A stretch of DNA of 44,769 nt from a virus (taxonomy: Duplodnaviria > Heunggongvirae > Uroviricota > Caudoviricetes). Location: the IMG/VR virus record IMGVR_UViG_2909298281_000003. One strand, given 5' to 3'. The translations under genes and the position numbers were made by a program. The notes beneath the pieces were generated by a model. That model was given only the letters and a program-made list of their open reading frames with translations. It ran no database searches and had not been told where the DNA came from. How positions within the stretch are numbered: position 1 is the first letter of the stretch; every line of letters begins with the position of its first letter. Below are positions 3,351 to 40,104 of the stretch, in pieces.

Positions 3351-3655
3351 TATTTCACCTCTTGCTGTGTCATTGTTGAAAAATGGATACCAGCTCGTTG
3401 CTGCCAGACGATCCAACCGAGAGTCATATCCCATGCCATGTATTCGTTATCGCCGTTTTTTACTCTCCGACGATCTACTAAGTCACCGAAACGCTTTTCC
3501 ATGAATAATTCATAGGCTTCGCGTTCATCTGGCTCTACTTCCAGAGATACGAGTGCGATTTCATAAGCACGGCGCTCAATATCGTCTCGAACCTCTAGGC
3601 TGCTGATTCGTTCTTTGATTTCTTTAATCAGTTCTTTATTGGTAAATGTGGTCAT
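3350..3655 (-). CDS. yfdT: Early-left operon protein, YfdT-like (101 aa)
   Basis: ORF length and position match the CPS-53 yfdPQRST block; acidic small protein. Confidence 0.55.
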
Positions 3656-4017
3656 TATGCTCCAGCCTCCGGTGCTTTTGGCATTACTGCCCAGTGAGTG
3701 ATATTGACGTTTTCAAGGTCCCCGACCTGAAATGTCCACTGCCATTCTCCGGTTTCTTTTTGTCCCCAGGTGTACCAGAGAGAACGCCAGCCAATCAGCC
3801 AGCCTTCTCCATTAGCATCAAATAACAGAACACTTTCATTTGCTGGTGGCAGTTCAGCTGACACTGGTATTATTTTGTTTTCCAGTGCCGCACATTTAGC
3901 TTCAAGCGCGTCGAATTTACGTAACAGGTACTCAGCATTTGTTTCATTCACTTTCAGATCTCGCGGTACACATTTCCCGCGAAGAAACCCTTCCATTTCG
4001 AAAACATTCATGCGCAT
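3655..4017 (-). CDS. yfdS: Early-left operon protein, YfdS-like (120 aa)
   Basis: 120-aa ORF, start overlaps upstream gene stop (translational coupling). Confidence 0.55.
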   Translation of the reverse strand: MRMNVFEMEGFLRGKCVPRDLKVNETNAEYLLRKFDALEAKCAALENKIIPVSAELPPANESVLLFDANGEGWLIGWRSLWYTWGQKETGEWQWTFQVGDLENVNITHWAVMPKAPEAGA

Positions 4018-6972: not shown

Positions 6973-7058
6973 GTTGCTAACGAATCATCCTGGACTTCAT
7001 ATGCCCCAGGCGGCTACTTCGTGGGCGTCCTGCCTGTTCGTTATCTTTGATATAAAAT

Positions 7059-7121
7059 CTAACTTAACTTAGTTATCATGGCAAGAGAAAACACCAAACT
7101 TTTCTTAGTTCGGTGCCTTAG
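7059..7121. promoter_or_regulatory. OL-like operator cluster, with presumed leftward promoter
   Basis: Repeated half-site palindromes CTAAC-N4-CTTAG (7059-7072), CAAAC-N4-CTTAG (7095-7108) and a further CTTAG at 7117-7121, just 3' of cI. Confidence 0.45.
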
Positions 7122-7137
7122 TTAGAGAAGAGAGGTC

Positions 7138-7764
7138 TTAGAGTTCGTATTGAACTCCTTTGACTACACCAATGATAAGGCAATTACCATTGATAGGGAT
7201 GTTGGGATACCGAGGATTTAATGGCACTAAAAACTTTTGAGGGCCATCGATGACTAATTTTTTTACTGTAGCTTCGTTTGTTCCATCAAGTCGAGCGATG
7301 ACTATTTTTCCATGACGAGGTTCTGCATCTGGATCTACAATCACTGTTGCGCCTTCTGGTATTGTTGGGAGGCCATTAGGGTTAGTCATGGAGTCACCTT
7401 TAACCTCTAATGCAAATGAGTTATCACCAACCTTTAATGATGTATCTACCCACTTGTCCACTTCACTAAACACTTCTGCTGCCCTGCACTCAGTAAACTG
7501 CCCAGCCTGAACCCACGATATTACAGGAACTCTGCGCATGTTTGTGACGAGTTTGCCTTCAAACTCAGCACCATAAAGAATGTAATCTATTGACGTATTG
7601 AAGAACTTCGCTAATTTCGAAAGTGCCTCCCCGCCAGGGGTATTGATGTCTTTCTCCCAGTACCCCACAGCAACGTCGCTTACTCCACAAAATTTACCCA
7701 ATTCTTTCTGGGACGTTCTGGTAACTCTTCTCAGAGCTTTTATACGCTGACCAACCGTTTCCAT
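7138..7764 (-). CDS. cI: CI-type prophage repressor (HTH_XRE N-domain plus S24 LexA-like peptidase C-domain)
   Basis: 208-aa ORF; Ser/Lys dyad context (GDSM ... VKKL); divergent from cro. Confidence 0.85.
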   Translation of the reverse strand: METVGQRIKALRRVTRTSQKELGKFCGVSDVAVGYWEKDINTPGGEALSKLAKFFNTSIDYILYGAEFEGKLVTNMRRVPVISWVQAGQFTECRAAEVFSEVDKWVDTSLKVGDNSFALEVKGDSMTNPNGLPTIPEGATVIVDPDAEPRHGKIVIARLDGTNEATVKKLVIDGPQKFLVPLNPRYPNIPINGNCLIIGVVKGVQYEL

Positions 7765-7786
7765 AGGAGCACCATTTCTTTAATTG

Positions 7787-7849
7787 CTAAGTAATCTTAG
7801 TTTTTATTGACCAAAGATAGATTTGTAATTAGCATCTAACAAAACTTAG
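7787..7849. promoter_or_regulatory. OR-like operator/promoter region (PRM/PR) between cI and cro
   Basis: Perfect palindrome CTAAGtaatCTTAG at 7787-7800 and CTAACaaaaCTTAG at 7836-7849; TTGACC -35-like at 7807-7812; GGAGGG ribosome-binding site before cro. Confidence 0.5.
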
Positions 7850-7861
7850 TTTGGAGGGCGT

Positions 7862-8062
7862 ATGACAACTGACGATATCGAAAGCTACTTCGGCAGTATT
7901 GAGAAAGTTGCTGCTTTTTTCGGCATAACAACTGAAGCCGTTTATCAGTGGCGAAACCGTCCGGGCCAGTTAATTCCAAAAGGACGTGCAGCAGAAGCTG
8001 CATATAGAACTTGCGGACGGTTGCCATTTAAACCTGAGCTTTATGAAAAATCTAATGGATAA
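7862..8062 (+). CDS. cro: Cro-like HTH regulator (66 aa)
   Basis: Small HTH ORF divergent from the repressor, ribosome-binding site GGAGGG. Confidence 0.75.
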   Translation: MTTDDIESYFGSIEKVAAFFGITTEAVYQWRNRPGQLIPKGRAAEAAYRTCGRLPFKPELYEKSNG

Positions 8063-8651
8063 ATCGATTAACAGAAACCACAGAACGATGAGGCTAACCG
8101 TGGGTAAGCATCACTGGAAAGTAGAAAAACAGCCTGAGTGGTACGTGAAAGCTGTCAGAAAAACTATCGCAAAGTTGCCGGGTGGTTACGCTGAAGCAGC
8201 TGACTGGCTGGATGTAACAGAGAACGCATTATTTAACCGCCTTCGTGCCGATGGCGATCAGATTTTCCCGCTGGGATGGGCAATGATTTTGCAACGTGCT
8301 GGTGGAACTCACTTCATTGCTGACGCAGTGGCGCAGTCTGCAAATGGCGTCTTTGTGTCTCTTCCTGACGTCGAGGATGTGGACAACGCCGATATTAACC
8401 AGCGCCTGCTGGAAGTCATTGAACAGATCGGCAGTTATTCAAAACAGATTCGTTCAGCAATTGAAGACGGTGTAGTGGAACCGCATGAGAAGACAGCAAT
8501 TAACGACGAGCTGTACCTCTCAATTTCGAAGCTGCAGGAGCATGCAGCACTGGTCTATAAAATTTTTTGCATTTCAGAAAGTAATGACGCCCGCGAGTGT
8601 GCAGCTCCGGGCGCCGTGGCGTGTCGTGACTGTGGAGAAACTAACGCATGA
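8043..8651 (+). CDS. CII-like regulatory protein (CP76-type, about 202 aa)
   Basis: Start ATG 8043 overlaps the cro stop; position downstream of cro; family assignment from memory. Confidence 0.45.
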
Positions 8652-8995: not shown

Positions 8996-9922
8996 ATGAG
9001 CACTAAATTAACCGGCTATGTATGGGATGGTTGCGCTGCATCAGGCATGAAATTATCCAGCGTGGCAATTATGGCCCGCCTGGCTGATTTCAGTAATGAC
9101 GAAGGTGTGTGCTGGCCATCAATTGAAACCATTGCCCGCCAGATTGGCGCGGGGATGAGTACCGTCAGAACGGCTATCGCACGGCTGGAAGCAGAAGGCT
9201 GGTTAACGCGTAGGGCGCGTCGCCAGGGTAACCGCAATGCGTCGAATGTTTATCAGCTTAACGTTGCGAAGCTTCAGGCAGCGGCATTTTCTCAACTGTC
9301 AGATTCTGACCCGTCAAAATCTGACCCGTCAAAATTTGATGCGTCGAAATCTGGCAAAAAAGCGGGTTTTCACCCGTCAGAATCTGGTGGGGATCCGTCA
9401 GTAAAATCAAAACATGATCCGTCAGATAAAAAAACTTCTCGTCCGGACGCTTCGCAACCGGACACGCAGACGGCTGAACAGGATTTTTTAACTCGCCATC
9501 CTGATGCGGTTGTATTCAGCCCTAAAAAGCGCCAGTGGGGGACGCAGGATGATTTGACCTGCGCACAGTGGCTCTGGAAAAAAATCATCGCCCTGTACGA
9601 GCATGCCGCCGAATGTGACGGCGAGGTGGTTCGTCCCAAAGAACCGAACTGGACAGCCTGGGCAAACGAAATTCGCCTGATGTGTGTGCAGGATGGTCGT
9701 ACTCATAAACAAATCTGCGAGATGTACAGCCGCGTCAGTCGCGATCCGTTCTGGTGCCGTAACGTGCTCAGCCCGTCGAAGCTGCGGGAAAAATGGGATG
9801 AGCTTTCCCTGCGCTTATCGCCGTCCGTCAGCACGTACACCGAAAAACGCGAAGACCCGTACTTCAAAGCCAGTTACGACAACGTGGACTACAGCCAGAT
9901 CCCGGCAGGATTCAGGGGGTGA
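8996..9922 (+). CDS. Replication initiator, O-like (HTH N-domain, iteron-containing linker)
   Basis: 308-aa ORF; N-terminal winged-helix region; internal iteron array encoding the DPSKSDPSKFDASKS repeats. Confidence 0.75.
   Translation: MSTKLTGYVWDGCAASGMKLSSVAIMARLADFSNDEGVCWPSIETIARQIGAGMSTVRTAIARLEAEGWLTRRARRQGNRNASNVYQLNVAKLQAAAFSQLSDSDPSKSDPSKFDASKSGKKAGFHPSESGGDPSVKSKHDPSDKKTSRPDASQPDTQTAEQDFLTRHPDAVVFSPKKRQWGTQDDLTCAQWLWKKIIALYEHAAECDGEVVRPKEPNWTAWANEIRLMCVQDGRTHKQICEMYSRVSRDPFWCRNVLSPSKLREKWDELSLRLSPSVSTYTEKREDPYFKASYDNVDYSQIPAGFRG
9305..9430. repeat. Iteron array (putative replication origin) inside the O-like gene
   Basis: Six direct copies of core CCGTCA(A/G)(A/T)AAT: ctgacccgtcaaaat x2, gcgtcgaaatctg, cacccgtcagaatctg, gatccgtcagtaaaatc, gatccgtcagataaa. 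Confidence 0.65.
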
Positions 9923-18650: not shown

Positions 18651-19196
18651 ATGGAAGTCAACAAAAAGCAGCTGGCTGACATTTTCGGTGCGAGTATCCG
18701 TACCATTCAGAACTGGCAGGAACAGGGAATGCCCGTTCTGCGAGGCGGTGGCAAGGGTAATGAGGTGCTTTATGACTCTGCCGCCGTTATAAGATGGTAT
18801 GCCGAAAGGGATGCTGAAATTGAGAACGAAAAGCTGCGCCGGGAAGTTGAAGAACTGCGGCAGGCCAGCGAGACAGATCTCCAGCCAGGGACTATTGAGT
18901 ACGAACGCCATCGACTTACGCGTGCGCAGGCCGACGCACAGGAGCTGAAAAATGCCAGAGACTCCGCTGAAGTGGTGGAAACCGCATTCTGTACTTTCGT
19001 GCTGTCGCGGATCGCAGGTGAAATTGCCAGTATTCTCGACGGGATCCCCCTGTCGGTGCAGCGGCGTTTTCCGGAACTGGAAAACCGACATGTTGATTTC
19101 CTGAAACGGGATATCATCAAAGCCATGAACAAAGCAGCCGCGCTGGATGAACTGATACCGGGGTTGCTGAGTGAATATATCGAACAGTCAGGTTAA
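18651..19196 (+). CDS. nu1: Terminase small subunit Nu1
   Basis: 181-aa ORF MEVNKKQLADIFGASIRTIQNWQEQGMPV… as lambda Nu1. Confidence 0.95.
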   Translation: MEVNKKQLADIFGASIRTIQNWQEQGMPVLRGGGKGNEVLYDSAAVIRWYAERDAEIENEKLRREVEELRQASETDLQPGTIEYERHRLTRAQADAQELKNARDSAEVVETAFCTFVLSRIAGEIASILDGIPLSVQRRFPELENRHVDFLKRDIIKAMNKAAALDELIPGLLSEYIEQSG

Positions 19197-19723
19197 CAGG
19201 CTGCGGCATTTTGTCCGCGCCGGGCTTCGCTCACTGTTCAGGCCGGAGCCACAGACCGCCGTTGAATGGGCGGATGCTAATTACTATCTCCCGAAAGAAT
19301 CCGCATACCAGGAAGGGCGCTGGGAAACACTGCCCTTTCAGCGGGCCATCATGAATGCGATGGGCAGCGACTACATCCGTGAGGTGAATGTGGTGAAGTC
19401 TGCCCGTGTCGGTTATTCCAAAATGCTGCTGGGTGTTTATGCCTACTTTATAGAGCATAAGCAGCGCAACACACTTATCTGGTTGCCGACGGATGGTGAT
19501 GCCGAGAACTTTATGAAAACCCACGTTGAGCCGACCATCCGCGATATTCCGTCGCTGCTGGCGCTGGCTCCGTGGTATGGCAAAAAGCACCGGGATAACA
19601 CGCTCACTATGAAGCGTTTTTCCAATGGTCGTGGCTTCTGGTGCCTGGGCGGTAAAGCGGCAAAAAACTACCGTGAAAAGTCGGTGGATGTGGCGGGTTA
19701 TGATGAACTTGCTGCCTTTGATG
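19171..19723 (+). pseudogene. A: Terminase large subunit A, N-terminal fragment, interrupted by an IS66-family insertion
   Basis: Lambda gpA N-terminus up to …GYDELAAFD, then reading continues into IS sequence. Confidence 0.9.
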
Positions 19724-19724
19724 G

Positions 19725-19800
19725 TAACCGGCTCATTTAAACCGTCTGGTCTGTTTCCTCCGTAACCGGCTCATTTAAACCGTCTGGTCTGTTTCCTCCG
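19725..19800 (+). repeat. Tandem duplication of the 38-bp IS66 left-end sequence
   Basis: taaccggctcatttaaaccgtctggtctgtttcctccg occurs twice back to back (19725-19762, 19763-19800). Confidence 0.8.
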
Positions 19801-19814
19801 GCTCTACAAAAATA

Positions 19815-20492
19815 ATGTCCATCATTTTTAATGGACACTATCGTATGAAACACCGGACCTGGATCACTGAAGCTTTACGTCTTCACTTTGAAGAACATTT
19901 ACCCCGGGTTGTGGCCGGGCGTCGCCTGGGTGTACCAAAATCAACAGTTTGTAGTATGTTCGTGCGCTTTCGGAGAGCTGGCCTTTCGTGGCCTTTGCCC
20001 GCAGGCATGTCGGAGCAGGAACTTGATGCCTGCCTTTACGGACAATTTTCCACGGTACCAGTCGTACGTCCTGAAAGCACCGTTATATCCGAAGCCCCCG
20101 TGGTAAAAAAACGTCCCCGGCGGCCCAACTTCCCTTATGAGTTTAAAATCGCCTTAGTGGAGCAGTCACTGCAGCCCGGAGCCTGTGTGGCGCAGATCGC
20201 CCGGGAAAACGGAATCAACGATAACCTGCTCTTCAACTGGCGCCATCAATACCGGAAAGGTGGCCTGCTGCCTTCCGGAAAAAATATGCCGGCACTGCTT
20301 CCCGTGACGTTAACGCCGGAGCCGGATAATAAAATCCCGGCCCCCGCACAGGAACCAGAGCAGATAAATACACCGTCCGACAGTCTGTGTTGTGAGCTGG
20401 TTCTGCCGGCCGGAACTCTCAGGCTTAAAGGTAAACTGACGCCTGCGTTATTACAGACACTTATCCGCGAAATAAAAGGGAGCAGCCACTGA
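19815..20492 (+). CDS. tnpA: IS66-family accessory protein TnpA (orf1); start uncertain
   Basis: HTH region FKIALVEQSLQPGACVAQIARENGINDNLLFNWRHQY typical of IS66 orf1. Confidence 0.7.
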   Translation: MSIIFNGHYRMKHRTWITEALRLHFEEHLPRVVAGRRLGVPKSTVCSMFVRFRRAGLSWPLPAGMSEQELDACLYGQFSTVPVVRPESTVISEAPVVKKRPRRPNFPYEFKIALVEQSLQPGACVAQIARENGINDNLLFNWRHQYRKGGLLPSGKNMPALLPVTLTPEPDNKIPAPAQEPEQINTPSDSLCCELVLPAGTLRLKGKLTPALLQTLIREIKGSSH

Positions 20493-20839
20493 TGATATCT
20501 CTCCCTGCAGGTTCGCGTATCTGGCTGGTTGCAGGTATCACCGATATGCGAAATGGCTTTAACGGCCTGGCATCAAAAGTTCAGAACGTCCTGAAGGATG
20601 ACCCGTTCTCCGGACACCTGTTCATCTTCCGCGGACGCCGGGGTGACCAGATAAAAGTGTTGTGGGCTGACAGTGACGGACTGTGCCTCTTCACCAAACG
20701 CCTGGAGCGGGGCCGCTTCGTCTGGCCAGTCACCCGTGACGGCAAGGTGCACCTTACTCCGGCTCAGTTATCCATGCTTCTTGAAGGTATCAACTGGAAG
20801 CACCCGAAACGAACGGAACGCGCTGGAATCCGCATATAA
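20492..20839 (+). CDS. tnpB: IS66-family TnpB (orf2)
   Basis: 115-aa ORF MISLPAGSRIWLVAGITDMRNGFNGLA…, start overlaps the tnpA stop. Confidence 0.8.
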   Translation: MISLPAGSRIWLVAGITDMRNGFNGLASKVQNVLKDDPFSGHLFIFRGRRGDQIKVLWADSDGLCLFTKRLERGRFVWPVTRDGKVHLTPAQLSMLLEGINWKHPKRTERAGIRI

Positions 20840-20858
20840 CCCGTTGTAAAGTGAGGAT

Positions 20859-22429
20859 ATGGACACCTCACTTGCTCATGAGAACGCCCGCCTGCGGGCA
20901 CTGTTGCAGACGCAACAGGACACCATCCGCCAGATGGCTGAATACAACCGCCTGCTCTCACAGCGGGTGGCGGCTTATGCTTCCGAAATCAACCGGCTGA
21001 AGGCGCTGGTTGCGAAACTGCAACGTATGCAGTTCGGTAAAAGCTCAGAAAAACTTCGTGCAAAAACCGAACGACAGATACAGGAAGCACAGGAGCGAAT
21101 CAGCGCACTTCAGGAAGAAATGGCGGAAACGCTGGGTGAGCAATATGACCCGGTACTGCCATCCGCCCTGCGCCAGTCTTCAGCCCGTAAACCGTTACCG
21201 GCCTCACTTCCCGTGAAACCCGGGTTATCCGGCCGGAAGAGGAATGCTGTCCTGCCTGTGGTGGTGAACTCAGTTCTCTGGGATGTGATGTGTCAGAGCA
21301 ACTGGAGCTTATCAGCAGCGCCTTTAAGGTTATCGAAACACAACGTCCGAAACTGGCCTGTTGCCGGTGCGACCATATCGTGCAGGCACCAGTACCTTCA
21401 AAACCCATTGCACGCAGTTATGCCGGAGCGGGGCTTCTTGCCCATGTTGTCAGCGGGAAATATGCAGACCATCTGCCGTTATACCGCCAGTCAGAAATAT
21501 ACCGTCGTCAGGGAGTGGAGCTGAGCCGTGCCACACTGGGGCGCTGGACAGGTGCTGTTGCTGAACTGCTGGAGCCGCTGTATGACGTCCTGCGCCAGTA
21601 TGTGCTGATGCCCGGTAAAGTCCATGCTGATGATATCCCCGTCCCGGTCCAGGAGCCGGGCAGCGGTAAAACCCGGACAGCCCGGCTGTGGGTCTACGTC
21701 CGTGATGACCGTAACGCCGGTTCACAGATGCCCCCGGCGGTCTGGTTCGCGTACAGTCCGGACCGGAAAGGTATCCATCCACAAAATCACCTGGCCGGTT
21801 ACAGCGGTGTGCTTCAGGCCGATGCTTACGGTGGTTACCGGGCGTTATACGAATCCGGCAGAATAACGGAAGCCGCGTGTATGGCTCATGCCCGGAGAAA
21901 AATCCACGATGTGCATGCAAGAGCGCCCACCTACATCACCACGGAAGCCCTGCAGCGTATCGGTGAACTGTATGCCATCGAGGCAGAGGTCCGGGGCTGT
22001 TCAGCAGAACAGCGTCTGGCGGCAAGAAAAGCCAGAGCCGCGCCACTGATGCAGTCACTGTATGACTGGATACAGCAACAGATGAAAACACTGTCGCGTC
22101 ACTCAGATACGGCAAAAGCGTTCGCATACCTGCTGAAACAGTGGGATGCACTGAACGTGTACTGCAGTAATGGCTGGGTGGAAATCGACAACAACATCGC
22201 AGAGAACGCCTTACGGGGAGTGGCCGTAGGCCGGAAAAACTGGATGTTCGCGGGTTCCGACAGCGGTGGTGAACATGCGGCGGTGTTGTACTCGCTGATC
22301 GGCACATGCCGTCTGAACAATGTGGAGCCAGAAAAGTGGCTGCGTTACGTCATTGAACATATCCAGGACTGGCCGGCAAACCGGGTACGCGATCTGTTGC
22401 CCTGGAAAGTTGATCTGAGCTCTCAGTAA
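20859..22429 (+). pseudogene. tnpC: IS66-family transposase TnpC, frameshifted by loss of one C at 21210-21212
   Basis: Two overlapping ORFs (20859-21524, 21290-22429); the continuous reading …LPASLP|[20 protein letters not shown]… needs one extra C in cttcccgtg. Confidence 0.7.
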
Positions 22430-22460
22430 ATATCAATACGGTTCTGACGAGTCGCTTACC

Positions 22461-25621
<3,161 letters not shown>

Positions 25622-36703: not shown

Positions 36704-40104
<3,401 letters not shown>

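Follow-up and report, generated by a model that had tools for sequence, protein, structure and literature searches.

A doubled left end in the ISCro1 copy that interrupts a prophage terminase gene of Escherichia coli strain D181

The copy of ISCro1 (an insertion sequence of the IS66 family) that interrupts a lambdoid prophage of E. coli O182:H21 strain D181 carries the first 38 bp of the element twice, in direct tandem, and an identical doubling is found in a second copy of the same strain, located on a plasmid. Based on the comparison of these two copies with single-ended copies of the same strain and with ISCro1 in complete E. coli genomes, we consider it probable (roughly 0.7) that the doubled end is a rare, strain-specific and heritable structural variant, and not a product of the insertion event that placed the element in the prophage. 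As far as can be judged from the sequences, the doubling would have arisen only once, with a nested insertion at its origin, and would then have spread by transposition of a 2,737-bp unit, the outer left end being the one used. The window (by which we mean the whole stretch of 44,769 nucleotides that was analysed) was recognized, through the match of a chimeric 189-aa terminase fragment, as part of CP024252.1, the chromosome of strain D181 (assembly GCA_002741275.1).

Structure of the ISCro1 copy and of its left end

Apart from the tract at 19724-19800, the 44.8-kb window contains no perfect tandem array; this tract has a period of 38, 2.0 copies, 100% matches and no indels (Tandem Repeats Finder). 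When the whole window is searched with up to three mismatches allowed, the 38-mer TAACCGGCTCATTTAAACCGTCTGGTCTGTTTCCTCCG is found only at 19725-19762 and 19763-19800, in both cases as an exact match (no matches are expected, from 100 shuffles), and the direct tandem duplication of a 38-bp left end described in the initial annotation is thereby confirmed. The tract reads as a G followed by TAACCGGCTCATTTAAACCGTCTGGTCTGTTTCCTCCG twice, so that its 77 nt correspond to 2 x 38 plus one shared G and the register of the repeat is ambiguous by 1 nt. In the register of the insertion sequence, the two copies occupy 19724-19761 and 19762-19799 (+ strand), and the start of the tract is nucleotide 1 of the element (GTAA...). 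The outer copy adjoins the target duplication and comprises the whole left inverted repeat (IRL, about 22-26 bp) together with 12-16 bp of the interior, and the inner copy is equivalent to nt 1-38 of canonical ISCro1, as established by alignment to four complete copies of 2,699 bp (L001, L002, L005 and L006). Additionally, the left end of ISCro1 contains a 7-bp direct repeat, CCGGCTC, at nt 5-11 and 37-43 of the element (19766-19772 and 19798-19804 of the window), whose second copy begins just inside the 38-bp boundary. We regard the doubled left end as very probably real.

The complete element spans 19724-22459 on the + strand and is 2,736 bp long, i.e., the canonical 2,699 bp plus the additional 38 bp and minus one nucleotide. 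Its genes follow the order tnpA-tnpB-tnpC on the same strand, with the domains that define the IS66 family: the accessory genes tnpA (19815-20492; an ORF with Pfam HTH_Tnp_1) and tnpB (20492-20839; an ORF with Pfam TnpB_IS66), followed by the DDE transposase gene tnpC (20859-22429). The latter is split into two ORFs (20859-21524 and 21290-22429, with DDE_Tnp_IS66 recognized on a 379-aa fragment), one C having been lost from a run of four (CCC at 21210-21212), which causes a frameshift. The protein encoded by tnpA is identical to the canonical one, a G>T change at 20444 being synonymous. A single right inverted repeat (IRR) is present at 22438-22459 on the - strand (sequence search with up to three mismatches); IRL and IRR match at 16/22 or 18/26 positions, depending on the length considered, and both begin with GTAA. 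The termini of the element (GTAA...TTAC) were fixed by alignment with complete copies.

The attribution of the end to the IS66 family in the initial annotation was correct, and the element can be named as ISCro1: a megablast search of complete E. coli genomes returned, with more than 99% identity, thousands of loci that bear the annotation "IS66-like element ISCro1 family transposase". The ISCro1 copies used for comparison are all 2,699 bp long, with one left end and an 8-bp target duplication. The window copy shares with them more than 99.8% nucleotide identity, the gene order, the GTAA...TTAC termini, the imperfect inverted repeats of about 22-26 bp and the length of the target duplication, and differs in that its first 38 bp are present twice and one C of tnpC is missing. 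Apart from the doubling, 5 substitutions and 1 deletion separate it from the 2,699-bp comparators; with L005, its closest relative, the differences come down to one substitution and one deletion. Four of the five substitutions are common to a plasmid copy in strain E272. With two complete IRLs (starting at 19724 and 19762) and one IRR, it does not match the canonical architecture of one left and one right end, and for this reason we class it as a variant of ISCro1. On the sequence evidence, it is ISCro1 in every defining respect save the one-left-end architecture and, possibly, the integrity of its transposase.

ISCro1 was first counted in Citrobacter rodentium ICC168 (PMC3072379), and it is mentioned only descriptively in that work and in a study of E. 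coli ST131 EC958 (PMC8764528). In the latter, the ISCro1 located upstream of afaA is given as 2,824 bp, an excess of 125 bp over the 2,699-bp copies of the present comparison; this could be another end variant, or result from another way of delimiting the element. Our search of the literature on ISCro1, the IS66 mechanism, circular intermediates and duplicated IRLs found nothing on doubled ISCro1 ends or on the sequencing method of strain D181.

Insertion site and occurrence of the doubled end

ISCro1 interrupts the terminase large-subunit gene (gpA-like) of the lambdoid prophage. The 5' part of the gene (19171-19723, + strand; Pfam GpA_ATPase) is cut by the element, its ORF continuing to a stop within the outer repeat copy (19171-19740, 189 aa), and the 3' part, with the nuclease domain (Pfam GpA_nuclease), was located at 22460-23840 on the same strand by alignment to the intact gene. 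An empty site is available in a 99.9%-identical prophage of E. coli O20:H12 (NZ_CP062855.1, L004), in which the terminase gene is contiguous (1,926 bp) and the site reads ...GCTGCCTTTGATGAGGATATT..., with CTTTGATG present once. In the window, this 8-mer is found on both sides of the element, at 19716-19723 and, from the alignment to the empty site, at 22460-22467. The element in the window is a simple insertion and comprises the entire 2,736-bp unit. Since its terminase gene is split, the prophage is packaging-defective: it is without a functional terminase and cannot package. The terminase insertion was found in no genome of the complete E. coli set when searched with an 80-nt query.

The target duplications of other ISCro1 copies are also 8 bp long (CTTTGAGC, TCATAATT, GAACCTGA, GGTCATAA, CGAAAGAA and GGATAAAC). 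The duplications CTTTGATG (window, 19716-19723) and CTTTGAGC (strain LH13-b, L002 301-308) are alike, and many ISCro1 copies match the left flank of the window for 8-20 bp past the end of the element; these similar flanks may reflect a target-sequence preference of ISCro1. Elsewhere in the prophage, three segments of the early region (762-2715, 3560-4009 and 7043-8075) have no counterpart in the near-identical prophage of NZ_CP062855.1, a case of mosaic module replacement. Additionally, a replication-protein-like ORF (8996-9922) contains, at 9305-9353, 3.3 repeats of a 15-bp unit, TCTGACCCGTCAAAA, an array that resembles the iterons found at lambdoid replication origins.

The junction between the two repeat copies was absent from all of the 5,426 complete E. 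coli genomes searched by megablast with a 40-mer centred on it, a query that seeds only where the junction exists. In these genomes, a segment of ISCro1 tnpC matches at about 5,764 places, and the search can be taken as sensitive enough, since left-end matches of 39 nt were readily detected with an 80-nt query; the assembly of strain D181 lies outside this RefSeq set. The junction was equally absent from INPHARED phages, GTDB representative genomes, IMG/VR and JGI metagenomes (exact and BLAST searches), and a gapped pattern covering left ends paired 20-50 bp apart gave no match in three collections, the genome and metagenome scans among these having been run without a positive control. The sole match beyond the window came from a PLSDB record, CP024249.1, a 167-kb IncF plasmid that also belongs to strain D181. 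The initial annotation had called the doubled end unusual, and this view is borne out both by the single left end of the 2,699-bp copies and by the absence of the junction from the complete genomes.

Direct repeats of a terminal sequence at one end of the element are also found in the IS21 family, Mu, Tn7 and Tn402, and the tract described here resembles them in this respect. In those elements, the end repeats are fixed and diverged in every copy and the inner sites are left uncleaved. The doubling in ISCro1 is unlike them, being an exact and recent duplication that includes the cleavage terminus itself. A natural multi-repeat end of the IS21, Mu or Tn7 type was rejected for ISCro1, given the lack of the junction in any of the 5,426 genomes and the single ends of three further copies in strain D181.

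Five ISCro1 copies were found in strain D181, whose chromosome was scanned in part, and at least two of the five are doubled; the three single-ended ones are located on the plasmid (two copies) and on the chromosome (one copy). The copy of the window (W; chromosome CP024252.1) is doubled, has the run of three Cs (C3) that frameshifts tnpC, and is bordered by CTTTGATG on both sides. On plasmid CP024249.1, the copy P1 (11846-14582; 2,737 bp) is doubled, with the intact run of four (C4), GCAACACC on its left and AGTTTATT on its right, and the copies P2 (44378-47076, with CGAAAGAA on both sides) and P3 (47740-50438, with AGTTTATT on the left and GCAACACC on the right) are single-ended with an intact C4. 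The second chromosomal copy, C2 (CP024252.1, at about 2.61 Mb, L015), is single-ended, 2,698 bp long, frameshifted by the same C3 and flanked by GGATAAAC on both sides; this target duplication lies within the tnpC of a different IS66-family element (L015 1560-6425), in which C2 is nested. No full ISCro1 was found in the other two plasmids of the strain. One C is the sole difference between P1 and W, which agree in the doubling and in a private synonymous SNP (T at 20444 of the window), and P2, P3 and C2 are of the same SNP type as these two. The comparison with other copies of the genome, suggested in the initial annotation as a way of checking the doubling, thus had a mixed outcome: the doubling is not universal (P2, P3 and C2 are single-ended), yet it is not unique to the window either (W and P1 are both doubled).

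On the plasmid, P2 and P3 are direct repeats separated by 663 bp, and the flanking 8-mers of P1 and P3 are reciprocal (GCAACACC and AGTTTATT), an arrangement typical of inversion between inverted copies. These flanks indicate that about 33 kb of the F plasmid was inverted through ISCro1, an event by which traC would have been parted from the finO-repA side; the AGTTTATT site is empty in plasmid pB7A_66. A deletion between P2 and P3 as the source of the doubled end was considered and rejected, the flanks of P1 being reciprocal with those of P3 and not derived from P2.

The contraction from C4 to C3 in tnpC is present in both chromosomal copies (W and C2), and all three plasmid copies are intact. 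It represents either a real mutation that the two copies share, as sisters mobilised in trans would do, or a systematic homopolymer error. Two further single-C deletions are present in the window relative to the prophage of NZ_CP062855.1, at 16275 and 39724; both occur in runs of C and truncate phage genes, namely an Rz-like lysis gene and the tail-tip gene gpJ (whose ORF, 36707-39760, ends early). The contracted Rz-like and gpJ genes may be pseudogenes or homopolymer errors of the assembly. With a contraction rate of about 2 in the 144-649 C/G runs of the window, an independent occurrence of this error in each of the two chromosomal copies is improbable (at most about 2 x 10^-4); nevertheless, an error of a systematic, context-specific kind might still lie behind both contractions. 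Should the frameshift in W be real, the transposase for this copy would have to come from the intact plasmid copies.

Origin and propagation of the doubled end

The identical doubling on P1, together with the single ends of P2, P3 and C2, implies that the doubling predates the insertion in the window or was copied between loci. The outer left end would be the one that was used in transposition, because in W the duplicated CTTTGATG brackets the outer IRL and the IRR, and the 2,737-bp unit would have moved as a whole, given that the two loci share its structure and that W has a target duplication. Transposition through the outer end is therefore what we infer from the two doubled loci and from the target duplication of one of them.

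For the origin of the doubling, we consider nested insertion followed by homologous recombination the most likely course. The left end of one ISCro1 would join another copy in the same orientation, at the point between bp 38 and 39, by nested insertion or by joining between sister chromatids, and the product would be A[1-38]-B[1-2699]-A[31-2699]. The 2.7-kb direct repeats of this intermediate would then undergo homologous recombination, which would leave A[1-38]+IS[1-2699], with no other scar. This model is favoured because it explains both boundaries of the repeat without coincidence. Insertion of one element into another, or at a very short distance, is documented in strain D181 itself, by the nested position of C2 and by the proximity of P2 and P3 (663 bp), and the nested intermediate predicted by the model was not observed. 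Resynthesis primed from a nick at the end of the element would leave the same product.

All four combinations of the two characters (with or without doubling, with or without the tnpC frameshift) exist in strain D181, in P1, W, C2 and P2/P3, respectively for doubled and intact, doubled and frameshifted, single and frameshifted, and single and intact; this pattern needs recombination, reversion or sequencing error. A history free of parallel mutation can be proposed, in which a canonical copy would give rise to a doubled one (P1), this to a doubled and frameshifted one (W), and the latter to a single-ended and frameshifted one (C2), generated either through the inner IRL or through collapse of the two repeat units into one. 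Appealing as it is, such a history is weak, since it relies on the frameshift, which may not be a dependable character. As a more tentative possibility, both left ends may be functional, the outer one having produced P1 and W and the inner one canonical progeny such as C2, in which case the doubling would be the footprint of a self-insertion of ISCro1.

The pattern of four combinations is also what gene conversion could produce: a canonical ISCro1 in the terminase gene would later have gained the 38 bp from the doubled plasmid copy (or the reverse), in a cell that holds at least five near-identical copies of the element, and the W copy alone would then be no proof of transposition through the outer end. 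However, the flanks of W and P1 differ, so that on the left the homology available would be limited to 38 bp, and a clean 8-bp duplication bordering the outer end follows directly from transposition of the whole unit, with no further step required; we regard gene conversion as unlikely. The initial annotation had itself raised the prospect of an assembly artefact, and an error of assembly or polishing (38 additional bp from an untrimmed contig overlap, or from polishing with multi-mapped reads, so that no copy, or only one, is truly doubled) would fit a duplication that starts exactly at a repeat boundary, that of the insertion sequence, where assembly graphs break. The quality of the assembly is imperfect, with three C-run contractions in the window alone, and both doubled copies come from one assembly (GCA_002741275.1), no independent assembly of strain D181 having been found. 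Nevertheless, an artefact is improbable, since two independent loci that differ in their flanks share this structure, three other copies of the assembly lack it, and the right end has no matching overlap; moreover, W and P1 differ by 1 nt, and hence are not one consensus pasted twice.

A local event at the site in the window, independent of P1, was likewise among the earlier suggestions, in the form of abortive transposition or replication slippage, to which misrepair of a transposase nick can be added (strand-displacement synthesis from the 3'-OH of the flank, followed by ligation of the flap). The left boundary of the repeat, at nucleotide 1 of the element, suits a transposase nick, and there is a 1-nt microhomology (G). 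For slippage, however, that same coincidence of the boundary with nucleotide 1 is a difficulty, as is the fact that the boundaries share 1 nt only and the 7-bp CCGGCTC repeat, with its 32-bp period, was left unused. In any version, the same 38-bp event would be needed twice in one strain, never having occurred in about 5,700 other copies, and the identical doubled end on the otherwise identical P1 makes an event confined to the window very unlikely. The last of the earlier suggestions, the junction of a head-to-tail dimer or of a circular transposition intermediate, has in its favour that two ends of the element stand side by side, and nothing more. At circle and tandem-dimer junctions (as in IS911, IS30, IS21 and IS256), the IRR abuts the IRL; the likeness with the present case is that of abutted ends, but in ISCro1 the pair consists of two IRLs in direct orientation with no IRR near, the only IRR being located at 22438-22459. 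Given also the simple insertion with a clean 8-bp duplication relative to a verified empty site, such a junction is excluded for practical purposes.

Consequences of a second left end

Elements of the IS66 family are abundant in enterobacterial chromosomes, plasmids and prophages. A new promoter resulting from the doubling was considered and rejected, as neither a sigma-70-like promoter nor a terminator is created, and no effect on expression is expected, because the sequence downstream of the inner IRL is canonical. What the doubling does provide is an element with two alternative left ends, which would again yield a canonical copy if the inner end were used or if the two repeat units collapsed into one. 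A related situation is known from Tn1721/Tn1722 (Tn3 family), in which a supernumerary end gives nested alternative elements and the extra end lies kilobases away, delimiting cargo. As in those transposons, the extra terminal repeat of ISCro1 is in direct orientation and the opposite end can pair with either; the differences are that the ends are adjacent in ISCro1 (38-bp spacing), that it belongs to a different family and that the use of its inner end is only deduced.

The doubled end is a strain-specific structural marker and, in other respects, a case of ordinary insertion-sequence biology of modest interest. To our knowledge, the recognition and cleavage of ends and the chemistry of transposition have not been established for the IS66 family, and a natural element with two identical and adjacent left ends offers a handle on the choice of ends by the transposase and on the self-targeting of ISCro1. 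If both ends are functional, strain D181 would amount to a naturally occurring experiment on how IS66-family elements choose their ends and target themselves.
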